Counted from the first letter of the stretch, positions 2,117 to 8,130 are shown. The stretch: DNA of 8,130 nucleotides from a virus (IMGVR_UViG_2654587509_000003:1-8130), one strand, 5' to 3'. Notes: a model not told the origin generated them from the sequence alone. Translations and numbers: made by a program.

Positions 2117-2295
2117 ACCCCGTCTCCCGTTATCCGGAAGCTGACAACAATAAAAAGCCACCAGTTAATTCCTGATGGCCCTGATGCATAAACGTCATAA
2201 TACCTGACTGTTATGATTGACAATAATGATAATGTTTATATAGAAAGGTCCCCGATGTGTGTTACATATCATTTCTCCACGGGGAATATCCCCAC

Positions 2296-2346
2296 GCCAG
2301 CGCAGACTCTTTTACCCGTTCTCTTCTGCGCTGGCTCTTTTTTATT
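2296..2346 (+). terminator. Plus-strand intrinsic terminator (11-bp GC-rich stem, then TCTTTTTTATT)
   Basis: gccagcgcaga (2296-2306) pairs perfectly with tctgcgctggc (2325-2335) around an 18-nt loop, followed by tcttttttatt. The U-tract is only on the plus strand. A GGGGA-ata-TCCCC hairpin sits just upstream (2281-2293). Confidence 0.45.
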
Positions 2347-2524
2347 ATGCTGCTGCATTTACCTCTGGCACCAGGCTTTCTATCTCAACACAATACGTGG
2401 TACTTCTTGTAACCAATATCATAACGATTAATCGACATAGAATTTCTCCCGTGTACAGGAACAGAGTTAAAAAGCCGGAACCGGAATCAAATCACAGGAT
2501 GACCATCTGCCAGTGGCAGGTCAT

Positions 2525-2551
2525 AAAAAAAAGGCCGCGCCATGCGCAGCC
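2525..2551 (-). terminator. Strong minus-strand intrinsic terminator between the cargo gene and the holin
   Basis: Minus-strand RNA 5'-GGCUGCGC-AUG-GCGCGGCC-UUUUUUUU: 8-bp GC-rich stem with one G.U pair, 3-nt loop, then 8 U (plus-strand A-run 2525-2532). Confidence 0.55.
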
Positions 2552-2981
2552 AGAACTCACAAGGAAAATGATAGAAGGAAATAACATTAGTGATGTACGC
2601 ATGGCGCCTCCCGCTAAGTTCTGCAATGATCAAACAGAACTCGCTACGTGCCCTTAAAACTCGATCATTTAGCCCCTCCAAGGAGGATTCACCATGCGGT
2701 TGGTTTTTTAATAAACAGTAAACAAAAAAGTCAAGAATTATTCATTCTGTTCTTTCATCATCGGCCACAGCAATACCACAATGCCGCAGACCAGAGCGCC
2801 ATCAGTCAGTACCAACATTATCCTGCTGGTGAAATCCATCATCACCATCACTAAAAGCAGGATCACAACAGCAAGCAGACACAGTTTATAAAACAATGTT
2901 CAGAAAACGCATTCAGCATGCCTAAGGTTCTATTCCTACGAATAGCCAACTTGCAACTTAAAATATTATTTATGCAGCCAA

Positions 2982-3740
2982 TTAAATTCTGGTCCTTACA
3001 ATATCAACCTGAAGATTCTTATCTTGTGCTGATTGATAAATGACAAACCTTTTACTACCTGCATTGAAAGAAGTAGACAAAACCAGACAATTATCATAAC
3101 GAGCAAGAACATAATACCAACCATCATTATAATTAATCATTTCATATTCTTTCTTAAACTGCGGTTTGTAATATCCTGTCAGAAATGAAAAAAGCCAGAA
3201 ATATGCCACAAAAGCAATCATCACAATCTCAAAAAAATGTTTTTTTATAAATGGCTTATCATAGAAGCATGATACCGATAAAAATCGCCCATAAGATCTT
3301 ATCGAAATTGTAACCGCCAGCGCAATCGCTGCTGACAGTAGCAAAAGAGGTACCTGAATCTTCTGTCTCAATATAGAAAACTCAATAATTGCCGGCACAA
3401 ACAATAATTCCACAGCAAAATAAAGGCGAAATACATTTAGCTCTTGCATAGAATGTTTTCTTTTCACTGCGAAAAAGAATACAACACCAATACCCCAACC
3501 GATAAGAAATATAGCAATGACGATAACTGCAAAAAATAAACTTCTGGCAACATCATCAACACCTGCACCTACAATCCACCATGGGAAGCCGTAGTAAAAA
3601 GAAGTACCCCATCCATAGAAATAAGCACTCCCCCATCCAAGGCATCCCATGTAGGCAATAAAAAGTGAAGAACTCCTGAGCAGCGCACCATCCTTCATAA
3701 CCACCCCAATACAAGATGATAACATTGGCTTACAACTCAT
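2982..3740 (-). CDS. Hypothetical polytopic membrane protein, AT-rich cargo (moron) gene
   Basis: 252-codon ORF. The likely true start is ATG at 3698 (MKDGALL..., preceded by GGGGTGG); the ATG at 3740 has no Shine-Dalgarno. About 5-6 hydrophobic helices and a hydrophilic C-terminal tail of about 50 aa. Hand-counted GC of sample stretches is about 30-35%, against about 55% in rusA. No family recognised. Confidence 0.7.
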   Translation of the reverse strand: MSCKPMLSSCIGVVMKDGALLRSSSLFIAYMGCLGWGSAYFYGWGTSFYYGFPWWIVGAGVDDVARSLFFAVIVIAIFLIGWGIGVVFFFAVKRKHSMQELNVFRLYFAVELLFVPAIIEFSILRQKIQVPLLLLSAAIALAVTISIRSYGRFLSVSCFYDKPFIKKHFFEIVMIAFVAYFWLFSFLTGYYKPQFKKEYEMINYNDGWYYVLARYDNCLVLSTSFNAGSKRFVIYQSAQDKNLQVDIVRTRI

Positions 3741-5381: not shown

Positions 5382-5544
5382 GACTCCTCCTTGCTGCCAG
5401 TCGCAACCATTTTTTATCAACCAGGCTGGCGGTATATCCGAGCAGTGTTGGTATTTCGGAAGGCTTCAGCTCAGGTTTACGCTTACGACGATTTGGTACT
5501 CTGTAAATGTGCCCGTTCATGACACGAATAAGCGGTGTAGCCAT
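5374..5544 (-). CDS. ninE: NinE (56 aa)
   Basis: Translated by hand; below the ORF track's length cut-off. [59 protein letters not shown] overlaps the ybcN stop (TAATG) and the stop overlaps the ybcO start. Confidence 0.8.
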   Translation of the reverse strand: MATPLIRVMNGHIYRVPNRRKRKPELKPSEIPTLLGYTASLVDKKWLRLAARRSHG

Positions 5545-5999
5545 TACGCCTCCTGCTTGTCGCGCAGCAGCTGGAACTCGCAGCTCGGCGGAATAGTCAG
5601 GTGGCAGCCAATATTCATCGCCCAGGCTTCAACCTTACACAGGAAGACATACATCTCTCCGGTATCAAGATCGGAGGTATGGCGTAACGACTGGATAGTG
5701 GTGATATCACCGGTTACGACATCAACCAGGTCTTTGGTTTCATAACCGAGATATGTGTGTTTGAGAGCATCTTTTACCCAAGCTGGAGTGGCGAACGTTT
5801 TACCCCTGCTGATGAGGTATTCACTGATTTCGCTGTACCACATGTGGCTGAGTGCATTCTGGGAAAGACTGCGTCTCTCGCGCCACGGTTTAAGCACCAT
5901 GCGAAAGCATTTGCCTTCCTCCAGATAAGGCTGGATCTGCTGACCGATAGCAGTGAAGTTACCACGATGCAATTTGATGCCGTCTTGTGGGAGGTTCAC
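5544..5999 (-). CDS. ybcN: NinB-family recombination protein (YbcN-like)
   Basis: 151 aa. The [23 protein letters not shown] core resembles the lambda NinB / DLP12 YbcN family. GTG start at 5999 with GGAGG 7 nt upstream. Confidence 0.85.
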
Positions 6000-6030
6000 G
6001 CTTCACCTCCGCAGAGGTCAAACGCTGGAT

Positions 6031-6132
6031 GCAAAAAATCGCAGGTGCATCTCTGCATCTGTGAAGGGAGAAGAGAGTTTGGATTGTATGTGCGCATAAA
6101 CGTCCCCGTTTAGCGCAGAAGTCACCGGAGTT
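6031..6132. repeat. Direct repeat copy A (~102 bp), immediately upstream of ybcN
   Basis: Aligned by eye to 7965-8066: 96 of 102 positions identical. Weaker similarity continues about 35 bp further right. Contains the TGCA-GNRA-TGCA mini-hairpin and a GGAG...CTCC hairpin. Confidence 0.85.
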
Positions 6133-6193
6133 GTTCAAGCTCCAATGGCATGATTATGGCTGGTTGATTATTGGAAATCAAATGTGCTGAAAA

Positions 6194-6703
6194 TTAGTCT
6201 GCCAAGTCTTCCTCAGTCGCAACTGGGTAATTCCAAATATCAAAAAAAGCTATAGCCTCCTGCCATTTGCTCCATAAGTTATCAAGTACTTGTGTAGGTT
6301 CCGTACTTTTAAAAACAGAATCAGCCGCATCACCGTTATGAACTTCCTCGTACAGTTCCATTATTAGCAGATTAACAAAGTACTGTTTCAACATTAATGC
6401 CTGATTACCTTCTTTCTGCTGGCTATCCTGCTTGATGATCTCCATCGCCCGTACTAGGCACCTGATGATATCCGCTGCATCATTAACGCTCCATTCAGAT
6501 CCGCGCTTATCTTTAGCTGATGAATTGGCTCTCTCAGCGCAAGCCTTTAAAGACTCATAAAGGTAAACTCTATTTTGTAGCTGCAGCGCTTTTTTTGACG
6601 TGTACCAACTTGCAAGCGCCGATCCCGCTGCGGCTAATGTGCCAAACGCAGAAATGCCTGCTGCTATTGCACTTAAGTCGGCACTGTCAAAGTTCCACAT
6701 CAT
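6194..6703 (-). CDS. Hypothetical membrane-anchored protein (169 aa), orphan
   Basis: ATG 6703 with AAGGTG 8 nt upstream. One N-terminal hydrophobic helix (LSAIAAGISAFGTLAAAGSALASWY), then a charged, probably helical soluble domain. GC about 36-38% by hand count. A terminator lies upstream (6879-6919) with an AT-rich promoter-like stretch between. Confidence 0.7.
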   Translation of the reverse strand: MMWNFDSADLSAIAAGISAFGTLAAAGSALASWYTSKKALQLQNRVYLYESLKACAERANSSAKDKRGSEWSVNDAADIIRCLVRAMEIIKQDSQQKEGNQALMLKQYFVNLLIMELYEEVHNGDAADSVFKSTEPTQVLDNLWSKWQEAIAFFDIWNYPVATEEDLAD

Positions 6704-6878
6704 CGTTACACCTTATATAAACACCCCTCAGTAATATCCAATAAGGTATGTGAACAATCAATATAATTTATATCCGTATCGGCACATAGCGATTTTAATG
6801 CTACTGATAATGGTATCTTTTAGATTATATCGTCCAGTTCCAGTACCCGTATTTTATGAAATGGACTCGCACATTACC

Positions 6879-6919
6879 AAAAAAAATGCCAGCACTTCCG
6901 TCATCGCAGAATGCTGGCA
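6879..6919 (-). terminator. Intrinsic terminator just downstream of the Bro-N-like gene
   Basis: tgccagca (6887-6894) pairs with tgctggca (6912-6919) as an 8-bp stem around a 17-nt loop; on the minus strand it is followed by 8 U (plus-strand A-run 6879-6886). Starts 20 nt past the gene's stop. Confidence 0.5.
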
Positions 6920-6938
6920 GTATTTCTAACTAGTGACT

Positions 6939-7547
6939 TTATTGCAACAGATTCTGACGGAAATATGGTAACACACGACTCCACTTATCATCCTGCCACG
7001 GTTGGAATTTTACATGCGCCGTTTCTCTGGCAAGGGTTTCTCGCGCCCTGTTGAGTATCCGAGGATATTCTTGTTCGATTGAAGTGAATCTACCTGCTTC
7101 GCGATGCTCTGCGACCTGAAGAAGGGGCGTAACGTTCTGGCAGGCGGTTAACATCGTATCACTTGCTCGCCATAACCAGGAGAGTGTGCAAAGTTCGTTA
7201 TCAGTGAATTGTTTTGTGATTGGGGATTGTTGAACTTCTCGATCGAGAATATCCAGAACCCAGCGGCGGAATTCTTTGGCCACAGGAGTACGAGCAAACA
7301 TGGCGATCAAATGGGCTCCGCGAAGGCTAAATACTCGAGACTCCTGCATTCCACGAGGGGTGGTCACTTTGACCACCCTTGTCATCATATCTGTGAATTC
7401 ATCTGAGTGCCGAGAGTAAATGCGCTGAACTGCTTTATCGTCCGCATATTCCAGTGCTAAACCAACTTCAGTGGCAGTAAGCCAAATTCTGTTATTGTGG
7501 CAAATCGGGGTAAACGTCGTTTTGTGGAATGCTAATTGAGTAGTCAT
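6939..7547 (-). CDS. Bro-N / antirepressor-like DNA-binding domain protein (Roi/Ant-like) with uncharacterised C-terminal domain
   Basis: 202 aa. N-terminal NNRIWLTATEVGLALEYADDKAVQRIY...RVFSLRGAHLIAMFARTPVAKEFRRWVLDIL fits the Bro-N / ORF6N-type pattern as recalled. GAGGTG Shine-Dalgarno before ATG 7547. GC about 55%. Confidence 0.6.
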   Translation of the reverse strand: MTTQLAFHKTTFTPICHNNRIWLTATEVGLALEYADDKAVQRIYSRHSDEFTDMMTRVVKVTTPRGMQESRVFSLRGAHLIAMFARTPVAKEFRRWVLDILDREVQQSPITKQFTDNELCTLSWLWRASDTMLTACQNVTPLLQVAEHREAGRFTSIEQEYPRILNRARETLARETAHVKFQPWQDDKWSRVLPYFRQNLLQ

Positions 7548-7571
7548 AGTATCACCTCATCAGGTTAACCA

Positions 7572-7604
7572 TCACCACCAACGACGCCAATCGACTGGTG
7601 GTGA
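7572..7604 (-). promoter_or_regulatory. Perfect 9-bp inverted repeat (TCACCACCA-N15-TGGTGGTGA) in the upstream/5' region of the Bro-N-like gene
   Basis: Seen directly. Could be a protein operator or a 5'-UTR hairpin. No U-tract follows, so it is not a terminator. Confidence 0.3.
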
Positions 7605-7703
7605 ACTGTGTAAGGTTGGCGTAACCGGCTACTCAAACCCGGCGCTTCCGAAGAAGCCCTCACACAGCCCACCATAATTTGGGCATAGCCGTGCTTAGCG
7701 CAC

Positions 7704-7724
7704 AAAAAAACCGCTTAACGCGGT
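7704..7724 (-). terminator. Modest intrinsic terminator (tR-like) upstream of the Bro-N-like gene
   Basis: Minus-strand RNA ACCGC-GUUAA-GCGGU followed by 7 U (plus-strand A-run 7704-7710). Confidence 0.4.
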
Positions 7725-7810
7725 ATGCGTTGAGTAGTATCCCGGGACGCCAATCCCGTGTGCCGATTTTGCGGCAACGCACAGAATATAGCGCCGGATA
7801 AATCATGTCG

Positions 7811-8059
7811 TCAACCCCAGTAAATGGACACCATGATGATCACAGCCATAGCTGCTACAACAGTTACAACTACCTCAGGCCAAAACATAACGATTTCCAT
7901 ATCACCTTTAGCCGCCAGACGAATAGAGACTCCCAATTCTGGCTGTCGAAGTAAAACACCGAATGTAAAAAATCGTAGGTGCATTTCTGCATCTGTGAAT
8001 GGAGATGAGAGTTTGGATTGTGTGTGCGCATAAACGTCCCCGTTTAGCGCAGAAGTCAC
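7811..8059 (-). CDS. Hypothetical small protein (82 aa) with hydrophobic C-terminal segment; N-terminus encoded by repeat copy B
   Basis: GTG start inside the repeat. C-terminal MEIVMFWPEVVVTVVAAMAVIIMVSIYWG looks like a TM helix. No obvious Shine-Dalgarno, so coding status is uncertain. Confidence 0.3.
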   Translation of the reverse strand: MTSALNGDVYAHTQSKLSSPFTDAEMHLRFFTFGVLLRQPELGVSIRLAAKGDMEIVMFWPEVVVTVVAAMAVIIMVSIYWG

Positions 8060-8066
8060 CGGAGTT
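7965..8066. repeat. Direct repeat copy B (~102 bp)
   Basis: Partner of 6031-6132. The six differences are at repeat positions 2, 12, 21, 36, 41 and 58. Confidence 0.85.
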
Positions 8067-8130
8067 TTTTAGGCTCCGATGACAACATTATGGCTTTTTT
8101 ATTTCTAAATTCAAAACTTGAAAATATTAA

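Follow-up and report, generated by a model that had tools for sequence, protein, structure and literature searches.

The 8,130-nucleotide (nt) stretch IMGVR_UViG_2654587509_000003:1-8130 (here the window, i.e., the whole stretch of DNA that was analyzed) is part of a lambdoid prophage of Escherichia coli similar to DLP12 and phage 82, with its genes located on the minus strand. In sense order, it contains a repeat unit (copy B), an open reading frame (ORF) of 57 amino acids (aa), matches to isrK and C4 RNAs, a Bro-N/P22AR_C gene, a gene for 169 aa and a second repeat unit (copy A). Copy A is followed by ylcH, ybcN (NinB family), ninE, ybcO, rusA, and Q, and these by genes for a 252-aa membrane protein, a holin, a lysozyme, Rz, and a Rha-family protein. 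The region 5500-8130 is 99.6% identical to E. coli chromosomes (e.g., NZ_CP150019). The repeat unit is the subject of this work: copy A lies directly upstream of ybcN and contains the start of the small upstream ORF (uORF) ylcH, whereas copy B heads the cassette that lies between the two copies.

The Repeat Pair

As the first-pass annotation of the window had described, positions 6031-6132 and 7965-8066 are direct repeats with weaker flanks. By direct count, 96 out of 102 sites are identical (mismatches at 6032, 6042, 6051, 6066, 6072, and 6088), and over the longer span (6014-6169 vs. 7948-8103, throughout 1934 nt apart) 135 out of 156 sites are. In a repeat scan of the window this pair was at the top (156 nt, 87%), with the next longest family reaching 30 nt, and it cannot be attributed to chance. 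On the sense strand, the similarity begins near a -10 hexamer, ends about 15 nt past a T tract and fades at both ends. Its coding share comprises the first 24 codons of ylcH, and approximately 70 nt of the repeat precede the ATG. Copy A runs without a gap into the ribosome-binding site (RBS) of ybcN, whose GTG is found at 5997-5999, again as described before. The approximately 1.8 kb between the repeats hold the two genes and the two terminator-like hairpins that had been listed, but also the isrK and C4 matches and a hydrophobic ORF, which had been overlooked (table 1). The 169-aa gene, previously regarded as an orphan, has a PHROG match.

Distribution of the Unit

The unit is present in 2885 of the 5426 complete E. 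coli genomes, including K-12 MG1655 (DLP12, ylcH; 571,520-571,675), with a median of one copy and a maximum of four, and the whole two-unit arrangement is found in 112 of them. A BLAST search with the 156-nt unit gave matches in 29 phage records. In all seven phages examined, that is, 82, phi80, HK225, HK639, the Enterobacter phage CobraSix, the Klebsiella phage KO-TP1, and PhiR26_1, the unit is located directly upstream of ninB/ybcN, and its upstream neighbors are quite different or unrelated among these phages. The first six of them have a single copy and no cassette. The recurring junction and the single-copy, cassette-less relatives, for which a search had been recommended, were both found, the latter being the norm. 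In the DLP12 remnant of K-12, ybcL-ybcM and not phage early genes are directly upstream of the unit. A copy-B type 5′ end of DLP12, suggested by the extension of a megablast hit, was rejected, as the alignment shows a canonical, palindrome-bearing unit.

For the comparative analysis, about 330 loci were gathered from viral contigs using two different anchors. Most loci were found by patterns taken from the unit itself, and hairpin 3 was checked with the second anchor (hairpin 2 alone). Searching with a covariance model of hairpins 1-3 yielded 202 matches in 192 of the fetched loci. A 16-mer scan of genome contigs proved too short to be specific, with 4 genuine matches out of 120 (Lelliottia, Enterobacter, a decayed Shigella copy, and contig L214); the occurrences in Photorhabdus and Pantoea were rejected as chance matches of the 16-mer. 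The decayed copy, at approximately 80-280 of a Shigella flexneri contig (L198), has lost the ATG of the uORF, has a mutated hairpin 3 and an altered -10, and shows the unit without constraint.

The record of phage 82 (X92588, 1996) annotates within these bases putative -35 and -10 sites, an RBS, orf33, and a "possible regulator-binding site." In a near-identical genome, the 33-codon ORF is listed by PGAP as a hypothetical protein. Literature searches found no experimental description of the unit beyond that 1996 annotation. With Rfam 15, a cmscan of the whole window (E ≤ 1) gave no match overlapping 6014-6169 or 7948-8103. The ylcH/ninB leader thus appears to be uncharacterized, though widespread.

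RNA Hairpins and Covariation

Two small hairpins of the repeat had been named before, GGAG-N9-CTCC and TGCA-GAGA/GAAA-TGCA, and both are present as the cores of hairpins 1 and 3, respectively. A third one between them, which carries the start codon of the small ORF in both copies, had been overlooked (hairpin 2), and copy A has a fourth, hairpin 4.

Hairpin 1 folds alike in 50 of the 51 distinct variants. Its stem is highly variable, with two-sided changes at 9 out of 10 pairs and 94% of the alignment cells paired, and its loop is conserved (family consensus CCUGAACAA). The hairpin starts just 3-5 nt past the -10, and its outer stem pairs covary as well.

All 19 distinct variants of hairpin 2 fold. 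At least four versions of its stem exist (TAAACG/CGTTTA, ATTTAAG/CTTAAAT, TTTGAG/CTCAAA, and TCTGATT/ATTAGA), with double changes at 7 out of 10 pairs and with the start of the uORF, either ATG or GTG, in the 3′ arm. MAFFT and RNAalifold alone under-called this hairpin, as the sequence types were out of register; per-sequence folding and alignment to the covariance model were used instead.

In the model alignment of the first 100 matches, 91.8% of the cells were paired compared with 83.7% in shuffles, and two-sided changes were found at 16 pairs, a number reached in none of 500 shuffles. When the 3′ partner was slid along the alignment, pairing fell to 26-39%. Many pairs are G.U on the sense strand (A.C on the other), which is an indication of RNA structure of the sense strand and not of an antisense RNA or a DNA cruciform. 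The covariation check that had been recommended thus returned compensatory changes, and these bear out the earlier suggestion that the repeat is a functional RNA or regulatory element rather than a scar.

Hairpin 3 lies within ylcH and has two mutually exclusive folds. The short one, CAGAUGCA-GAGA-UGCACCUG (6042-6061) followed by UUUUUU (6033-6038), has the look of a weak terminator (-7.3 kcal/mol), and its form in the family is CAGAUGCA-GARA-UGCACCUG followed by a T-rich run. The long one, GAUGCAGAGA...UUUUUUGCAUC (6028-6059), takes in the T run and is preferred by RNAfold. The core is near-invariant even among units picked by hairpin 2 alone. A terminator pattern was matched at 6040-6057, but the hairpin has little energy, the T tract varies among units, and a competing longer fold uses the U run. 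The simple terminator reading of this hairpin was downgraded for the latter two reasons; a partial terminator role is possible.

Hairpin 4 is predicted to bury the Shine-Dalgarno (SD) sequence GGAGG of ybcN. Pairing of the SD, at -10 kcal/mol or better, is seen in 64 out of 65 distinct variants (predicted range -10.8 to -21.9, median -15.5), and three sequence versions differ from each other by compensatory changes. Three sequence types of the whole leader fold alike, into four hairpins (z -2.8 to -5.2).

The uORF and the Downstream Genes

Across the family, the uORF has a length of 29-34 codons, and its frame is retained over five different N-terminal versions and a length difference of 3 nt. 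In 195 of 207 units, its stop codon overlaps the start of the next ORF (RTGA); in the window the overlap reads GCGTGA (5996-5999). Two features of translational coupling are found at this leader: a short ORF which ends over the start of the main gene, and an RBS of the main gene which is sequestered by a predicted structure within the leader ORF (hairpin 4). The peptide has a conserved motif, SQMQKCTCDFLH, and N- and C-terminal thirds that vary freely, whereas the synonymous sites of the conserved core almost never vary. It had no match to Pfam or PHROG families.

The usual partner of the unit is a ninB gene. YbcN is a distant member of this family, with a Pfam E-value that falls below the curated cutoff, and its name in PGAP is "DNA base-flipping protein YbcN." Three deeply diverged NinB subfamilies are represented among the downstream genes (Pfam NinB E 4e-4 for the YbcN type, 8e-51, and 3e-35), which indicates that the leader is better conserved than the protein behind it. 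There is a single contig (L102) where the downstream gene is the Q antiterminator and not ninB.

Promoter-Like Site and Palindrome

The information content of the aligned upstream regions rises abruptly at TTGATT, where the conserved unit has its left edge, and peaks on both hexamers. All 127 distinct regions contain a TTGATT-like/CATAAT-like pair scoring 8-10 out of 12. CATAAT itself is found in 95 of them, the 17-bp spacer in 116, and the palindrome TTGAT-N8-ATCAA in 89. TTGATT-17-CATAAT, with conserved -35 and -10 hexamers at a spacing within 16-18 bp, has the form of a sigma-70 promoter, and the unit seems to carry such a promoter, which may give the module its own transcription. Indirect evidence for it comes from K-12, where ylcH RNA has been reported (PMC8910356) although the unit is preceded by ybcL-ybcM instead of early phage genes. 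No promoter-like site was found by the promoter scan on the plus strand inside either unit.

The half-sites of the palindrome are kept as sequence, with no covariation, suggesting a protein-binding DNA site, probably an operator. Of the consensus sequences considered (FNR, IHF, Fis, and LexA), none fits; the half-sites are equal to those of FNR, but at a spacing of N8 and not N4. In K-12, ylcH RNA was reported to be about 2-fold up under microaerobic growth, and ylcH but not ybcN was listed as changed (PMC8910356). With regard to the FNR-type half-sites, this rise is maybe a coincidence.

Table 1. Positions of the features of copy A, copy B, and the cassette between them.
Feature	Position	Strand	Evidence or remark
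Copy A palindrome TTGATT-N6-AATCAA, operator-like	6164-6181	-	Promoter scan; left half is the -35 TTGATT (6176-6181)
Copy A -10-like hexamer CATAAT	6153-6158	-	17 bp from the -35; putative -10 in X92588
Copy A hairpin 1, 8-bp stem, loop CUUGAACAA	6123-6147	-	Family consensus loop CCUGAACAA
Copy A hairpin 2, GGGA loop (SD-like GGGGA), ylcH start codon in 3′ arm	6092-6116	-	19/19 distinct variants fold
Copy A hairpin 3 region, within ylcH	6028-6061	-	Two mutually exclusive folds; terminator scan, RNAfold
Hairpin 4 (copy A only), predicted to bury ybcN SD GGAGG and first GTG bases	5998-6025	-	Folding of variants
uORF ylcH, 33 aa	5996-6097	-	PGAP in near-identical genome; orf33 in phage 82; TGA overlaps ybcN GTG
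ybcN, distant NinB/Orf-family gene	5544-5999	-	phrog_72 NinB/Orf E 2e-51; Pfam NinB E 4e-4
Copy B promoter-like TTGAAT-16-CATAAT, without palindrome	8087-8114	-	Promoter scan
Copy B hairpin 1, 10-bp stem, loop altered to CCUAAAAAA	8055-8083	-	Two substitutions in conserved loop
Copy B hairpin 2	8026-8050	-	Identical to that of copy A
Copy B hairpin 3 core, weakened (-4.4 kcal/mol)	7976-7995	-	CCTGCG to CCTACG, TTGCAT to TTACAT
Copy B ylcH-like ORF, 53 aa, no coupled ninB start	7870-8031	-	Hypothetical protein in PhiR26_1
57-aa ORF, hydrophobic end …MEIVMFWPEVVVTVVAAMAVIIMVSIYWG	7811-7984	-	phrog_4612; starts at ATG in hairpin-3 loop
isrK promoter-like TTGACG-18-TATATT, left edge of the module proper	7785-7814	-	Promoter scan
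isrK-type RNA with terminator (7710-7724)	7704-7776	-	Rfam RF01394, 58.7 bits (gathering 50)
c4-a1b1 match overlapping isrK	7739-7791	-	RF03163, 39.6 bits, below gathering score
C4-type antisense RNA match	7594-7679	-	Rfam RF01695, 74.8 bits (gathering 45); inside 46-codon ORF
46-codon ORF, in orf45 position	7565-7705	-	ORF list
Antirepressor-like gene, in AnrP position	6939-7547	-	Pfam PF02498 (Bro-N) and PF10548 (P22AR_C); PHROG anti-repressor E 1e-55
Terminator-like hairpin GCCAGCA…TGCTGGC and eight T, just 3′ of antirepressor gene	6879-6918	-	Direct reading
169-aa gene, variable second cargo gene	6194-6703	-	phrog_1779 E 1e-102, function unknown

Copy B and the 57-aa ORF

Copy B retains the start of the uORF and hairpin 2, with changes in the loop of hairpin 1 and in the core of hairpin 3, and hairpin 4 is absent. 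The stretch 5′ of its -10 is related neither to copy A nor to DLP12.

The last 29 aa of the 57-aa ORF match positions 29-57 (out of 57) of phrog_4612 with E 1.7e-16. In the diverged copies of loci L035 and L127 the frame stays open across in-frame indels, and a stop codon interrupts it in L113. Judging from its hydrophobic end, the product is probably a small membrane protein; taken more broadly, it could be either a small membrane protein or a toxin-like peptide. The ORF ends inside the -35 of isrK and is unannotated in the matching RefSeq genome.

The Cassette

Both the isrK- and the C4-type RNA matches, each above its gathering score, are located 5′ of the antirepressor-like gene, with the 46-codon ORF between RNA and gene. 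In Gifsy-1, the respective arrangement isrK-orf45-anrP contains a short RNA which activates the translation of the antirepressor-like AnrP (PMC4825925). The matches beside the small ORF upstream of the Bro-N gene indicate that the cassette is a switch of the IsrK/AnrP type; by likeness, it is a recognizable module of the isrK-orf45-anrP/C4-ant type, whose control by RNA would be similar. An RNA, a small ORF, and an antirepressor-like protein are shared with both isrK-orf45-anrP-isrJ of Gifsy-1 and C4 RNA-icd-ant of P1/P7 immI. An isrK RNA with its own promoter and a leaky terminator seems to be a further feature common to Gifsy-1 and the layout of the cassette. On the contrary, Gifsy-1 has the antiterminator gene antQ upstream and isrJ downstream, whereas the cassette has the copy of the ninB leader and the 57-aa ORF upstream and the 169-aa gene downstream, and no isrJ match was found in this comparison.

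The terminator-like hairpin 3′ of the antirepressor gene was missed by the simple scan because its loop is long. The 169-aa gene is replaced by other genes in L035, L113, and L127, and its protein had no match in Pfam or PADLOC. PADLOC gave no defense-family match for the proteins of the cassette, for two hypothetical proteins encoded upstream of it, or for the cargo of locus L102. The genes of these two hypothetical proteins (221 and 319 aa) lie past the end of the window (L001, 6313-7952), between the replication gene P and copy B, and always occur together with the cassette in the approximately 20 genomes having them. The 319-aa protein has a hydrophobic C-terminus, and neither of the two had a Pfam match.

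Another variable region lies farther downstream, where a multi-pass hydrophobic ORF of 252 aa (2982-3740, minus strand, no Pfam match) is located between Q and the holin gene. NZ_CP150019 has an ompC-type porin gene on the opposite strand at this place, which makes the gap between Q and the holin gene a second site of variable cargo. Upstream of the holin gene, subthreshold Rfam matches to STnc100 (37.5 bits, gathering 47) and Esr41 (32.3 bits, gathering 102) were found at 2522-2727 (minus strand) and 2256-2345 (plus strand), respectively, around the expected late promoter and leader.

Recombination History of the Unit

Two units bracket diverged versions of the cassette (78-99% identity, differing second genes) in PhiR26_1 and in the loci L035/L119, L036, L046, L113/L293, and L127. 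In L102 (6843-11084), they bracket a tail-fiber-like/S74-chaperone protein and a 620-aa S-type pyocin/colicin-E3-like "Cytotoxic" toxin; the Rfam scan of this locus gave no match. L053 has the isrK-antirepressor module with no unit upstream of it; its homology to the cassette sets in precisely at the isrK promoter. The flanking units of L036 are 71% identical and carry different hairpin-2 types, whereas those of L127 are 93% identical and share their upstream sequence. Copy B of PhiR26_1 shows a switch of lineage between hairpins 1 and 2, and the breakpoints inside the unit differ among phages. The patterns of these loci indicate repeated homologous exchange within the unit. Its presence around both diverged cassettes and a colicin-like toxin suggests that it acts as a portable homology boundary.

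It had been proposed that the cassette was inserted by recombination within a conserved leader that was duplicated. The conservation of the leader, its recurrence and the breakpoints within it agree with that proposal. The loci L036, L053, and L102 and phage PhiR26_1 speak against a simple duplication upon insertion, as does the fact that copy B has a downstream ORF of its own (57 aa, phrog_4612); two tandem modules, each headed by a like leader, seem to fit better than one leader duplicated on insertion.

Among the copies that lie upstream and head cargo, there is a tendency toward degeneration of hairpin 3 or the uORF (L035, L102, and L113), which, together with the decayed Shigella copy, fits a constraint tied to the ninB context. 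In PhiR26_1 (L004, 1308-2810), a PD-lambda-1 defense gene closely precedes the copy-B unit. Taken with the other loci, this indicates that cargo has a hotspot in the gap which separates the replication genes from the leader.

Discussion

A Proposed Leader with a Coupled uORF

The explanation that we favor, and hold to be probable, is that the unit is a cis-acting leader in which the translation of NinB is coupled to that of the uORF, and that a partly degenerate second copy heads the cassette, the tandem having been produced by recombination between phages. Conservation of the sequence, covariation, conservation of the frame, and the stop-start overlap are established. Promoter activity, the coupling itself, and any regulator are what we infer from them.

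The whole leader, of about 185 nt, is located directly upstream of ninB/ybcN in the early-right operon of lambdoid phages, and would be composed, in order, of the promoter/operator, hairpin 1, hairpin 2 with the GGGGA SD and the start of the uORF, the hairpin-3 region, and hairpin 4. A ribosome translating the uORF would melt hairpin 4 and reinitiate at the overlapping start of ninB, so that NinB would be synthesized only upon translation of the uORF. Initiation at the uORF would in turn be gated by hairpin 2, and the loop of hairpin 1 is perhaps recognized by a factor that also gates it; this loop and the palindrome are the candidate sites for regulators. The tandem arrangement would most likely have come from homologous recombination between phages inside the shared leader, which, as the left edge of the conserved nin module, may serve as a portable boundary for the gain and exchange of accessory cargo.

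A bolder form of this proposal is put forward tentatively. The leader would be a self-contained module with an operator-controlled promoter and a four-hairpin RNA, whose uORF would gate the translation of NinB, and possibly the expression of the nin genes and Q, without dependence on N antitermination. A factor would read CCUGAACAA or the palindrome, and the leader would provide the homology for cargo swaps.

Several points weigh against the coupled leader as described. The loci were mostly gathered by patterns of the unit, and the invariance of the anchor segments is thus partly due to ascertainment. Many of the sequences are closely related, therefore the shuffle statistics overstate their independence. 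Hairpin 2 is only 84% paired, its pair counts being lowered by the alignment register, and hairpin 3 shows one-sided changes only, with no covariation and a varying T tract. A transcript from the leader promoter would lack the outer pairs of hairpin 1, suggesting that this hairpin matters in read-through from pR too. No factor was found that binds the palindrome or the hairpin-1 loop. As for the history of the tandem, the first-pass annotation had predicted a clean deletion between the repeats. A synthetic precise-deletion junction (the window's own upstream flank, a hybrid unit, and ybcN) was compared by BLAST with the 5426 E. coli genomes, and no record covered ≥80% of it (0/5426). Loss of the cassette mediated by the repeats is plausible. 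Overall, the earlier interpretation is partly supported.

Alternative Explanations

The unit might mainly be the counterpart of lambda tR2, that is, a terminator which makes Q depend on antitermination, with the other conserved features being incidental. In lambda, the gap between ren and ninB, which is exactly the place of the unit, holds the strong intrinsic terminator tR2, and hairpin 3 with its T run fits the pattern of a terminator. However, hairpin 3 is weak and contains an A.C mismatch, it is located inside an ORF that looks translated, and its T tract is not constant. Neither the promoter-like site nor the covariation of hairpins 1, 2, and 4 is explained in this way. In sequence, lambda tR2 has no similarity to the unit; it is simple, strong, and GC-rich, with no ORF, promoter, or further hairpins, and what the two share is a hairpin followed by a T run and their place directly in front of ninB, where the nin region begins. 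As the main function of the unit this is unlikely, although termination of the tR2 type is compatible with the coupled leader as one extra function.

It is rather unlikely, too, that the unit is the gene of a trans-acting small RNA (sRNA) of about 110 nt, which would extend from the CATAAT promoter to a terminator formed by hairpin 3 and the U tract, with the loop of hairpin 1 as its seed; the two copies would then be two sRNA genes. In its favor, the expected elements occur in the right order, from the promoter-like site through the 5′ hairpin and the conserved loop to the terminator-like hairpin and its T run, and it is the RNA of ylcH, not of ybcN, that is listed as changed in K-12 (PMC8910356). 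On the other hand, the T tract is variable and is paired into the longer hairpin in the minimum-energy fold, and the frame of the uORF, the stop-start overlap, and hairpin 4 would have no role in a pure sRNA. There is also no Rfam family for the unit and no complementary target in the window.

According to another explanation, the two copies are similar because they are paralogous genes of small proteins (YlcH and the YlcH-like 53-aa protein), and the peptide drives the conservation. The ATG and the first 24 codons are indeed kept in both copies, and SQMQKCTCDFLH is conserved across the family. Yet the five differences within those codons all change the residue (Y4H, L9H, P11H, R16K, and C19Y), and some 70 nt of the repeat lie 5′ of the ATG; paralogy of proteins, which had been named beforehand as the finding that would overturn the interpretation of the repeat, therefore does not explain it. 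In addition, the end thirds of the peptide vary freely while the synonymous sites of its core almost never do, and it matches no Pfam or PHROG family. This explanation is highly improbable.

The least credible explanation, that the repeats are a functionless by-product of insertion or illegitimate recombination, has in its favor that they bracket an accessory cassette as an insertion duplication would, but it is contradicted by a unit that is single-copy in thousands of genomes and in distant phages and has compensatory changes in three helices, and it does not agree with repeats that, at 100-156 nt and 87-94% identity and with no transposase or integrase gene or domain between them, are far longer than a target-site duplication and do not correspond to one or to att repeats of an integrase.

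Relation to Known Systems

The coupled leader has its closest known parallels in plasmids. In repY-repZ of the IncI-alpha/IncB plasmids and in tap-repA of R1, translation is coupled to a leader peptide, and the leader ORF reaches up to or into the start of the main gene. These systems resemble the unit in their leader ORF of approximately 24-33 codons, in an RBS locked in a hairpin that translation of the leader would open, and in an upstream stem-loop with a conserved loop. They differ in being controlled by an antisense RNA and, in the case of IncI-alpha, in the pseudoknot between loop and RBS. For the unit, neither an antisense promoter nor a complement to the hairpin-1 loop was found within the unit or the window, and it does not belong with the antisense-controlled leaders. 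Its setting, a phage early operon, and its main gene, which encodes a recombination mediator, are different as well.

In the modular theory of Susskind and Botstein and in the later comparisons of HK97, HK022, and HK620, boundary ("linker") sequences have reportedly been described in the mosaic genomes of lambdoid phages. The unit is similar to these, being a short conserved sequence at the edge of a module with unrelated flanking genes and with breakpoints within it. It differs from them in that covarying helices and an apparently coupled uORF are evidence that it has its own function, and recombination need not be the sole explanation of its conservation. Overall, the leader is best regarded as a further case of a known sort of cis-regulatory leader, and the duplication itself is ordinary phage mosaicism.

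Significance

The unit occurs in more than half of the complete E. coli genomes, K-12 included, yet has no Rfam family. If the coupled leader is true, it would be a new example of uORF-coupled translational regulation and would provide lambdoid phages with an added checkpoint that separates the replication genes from the nin/Q region. This would be of relevance to those Shiga-toxin phages that share the layout. The unit is also a testable case of a functional sequence that doubles as a recombination boundary. The cargo found beside or between units includes an antirepressor switch of the IsrK type, a colicin-like toxin and, directly upstream of a unit, PD-lambda-1. In the bolder form of the proposal, the ylcH leader, being conserved at the edge of the nin module, would also provide the homology by which antirepressor switches, toxins, and defense genes are captured and swapped.

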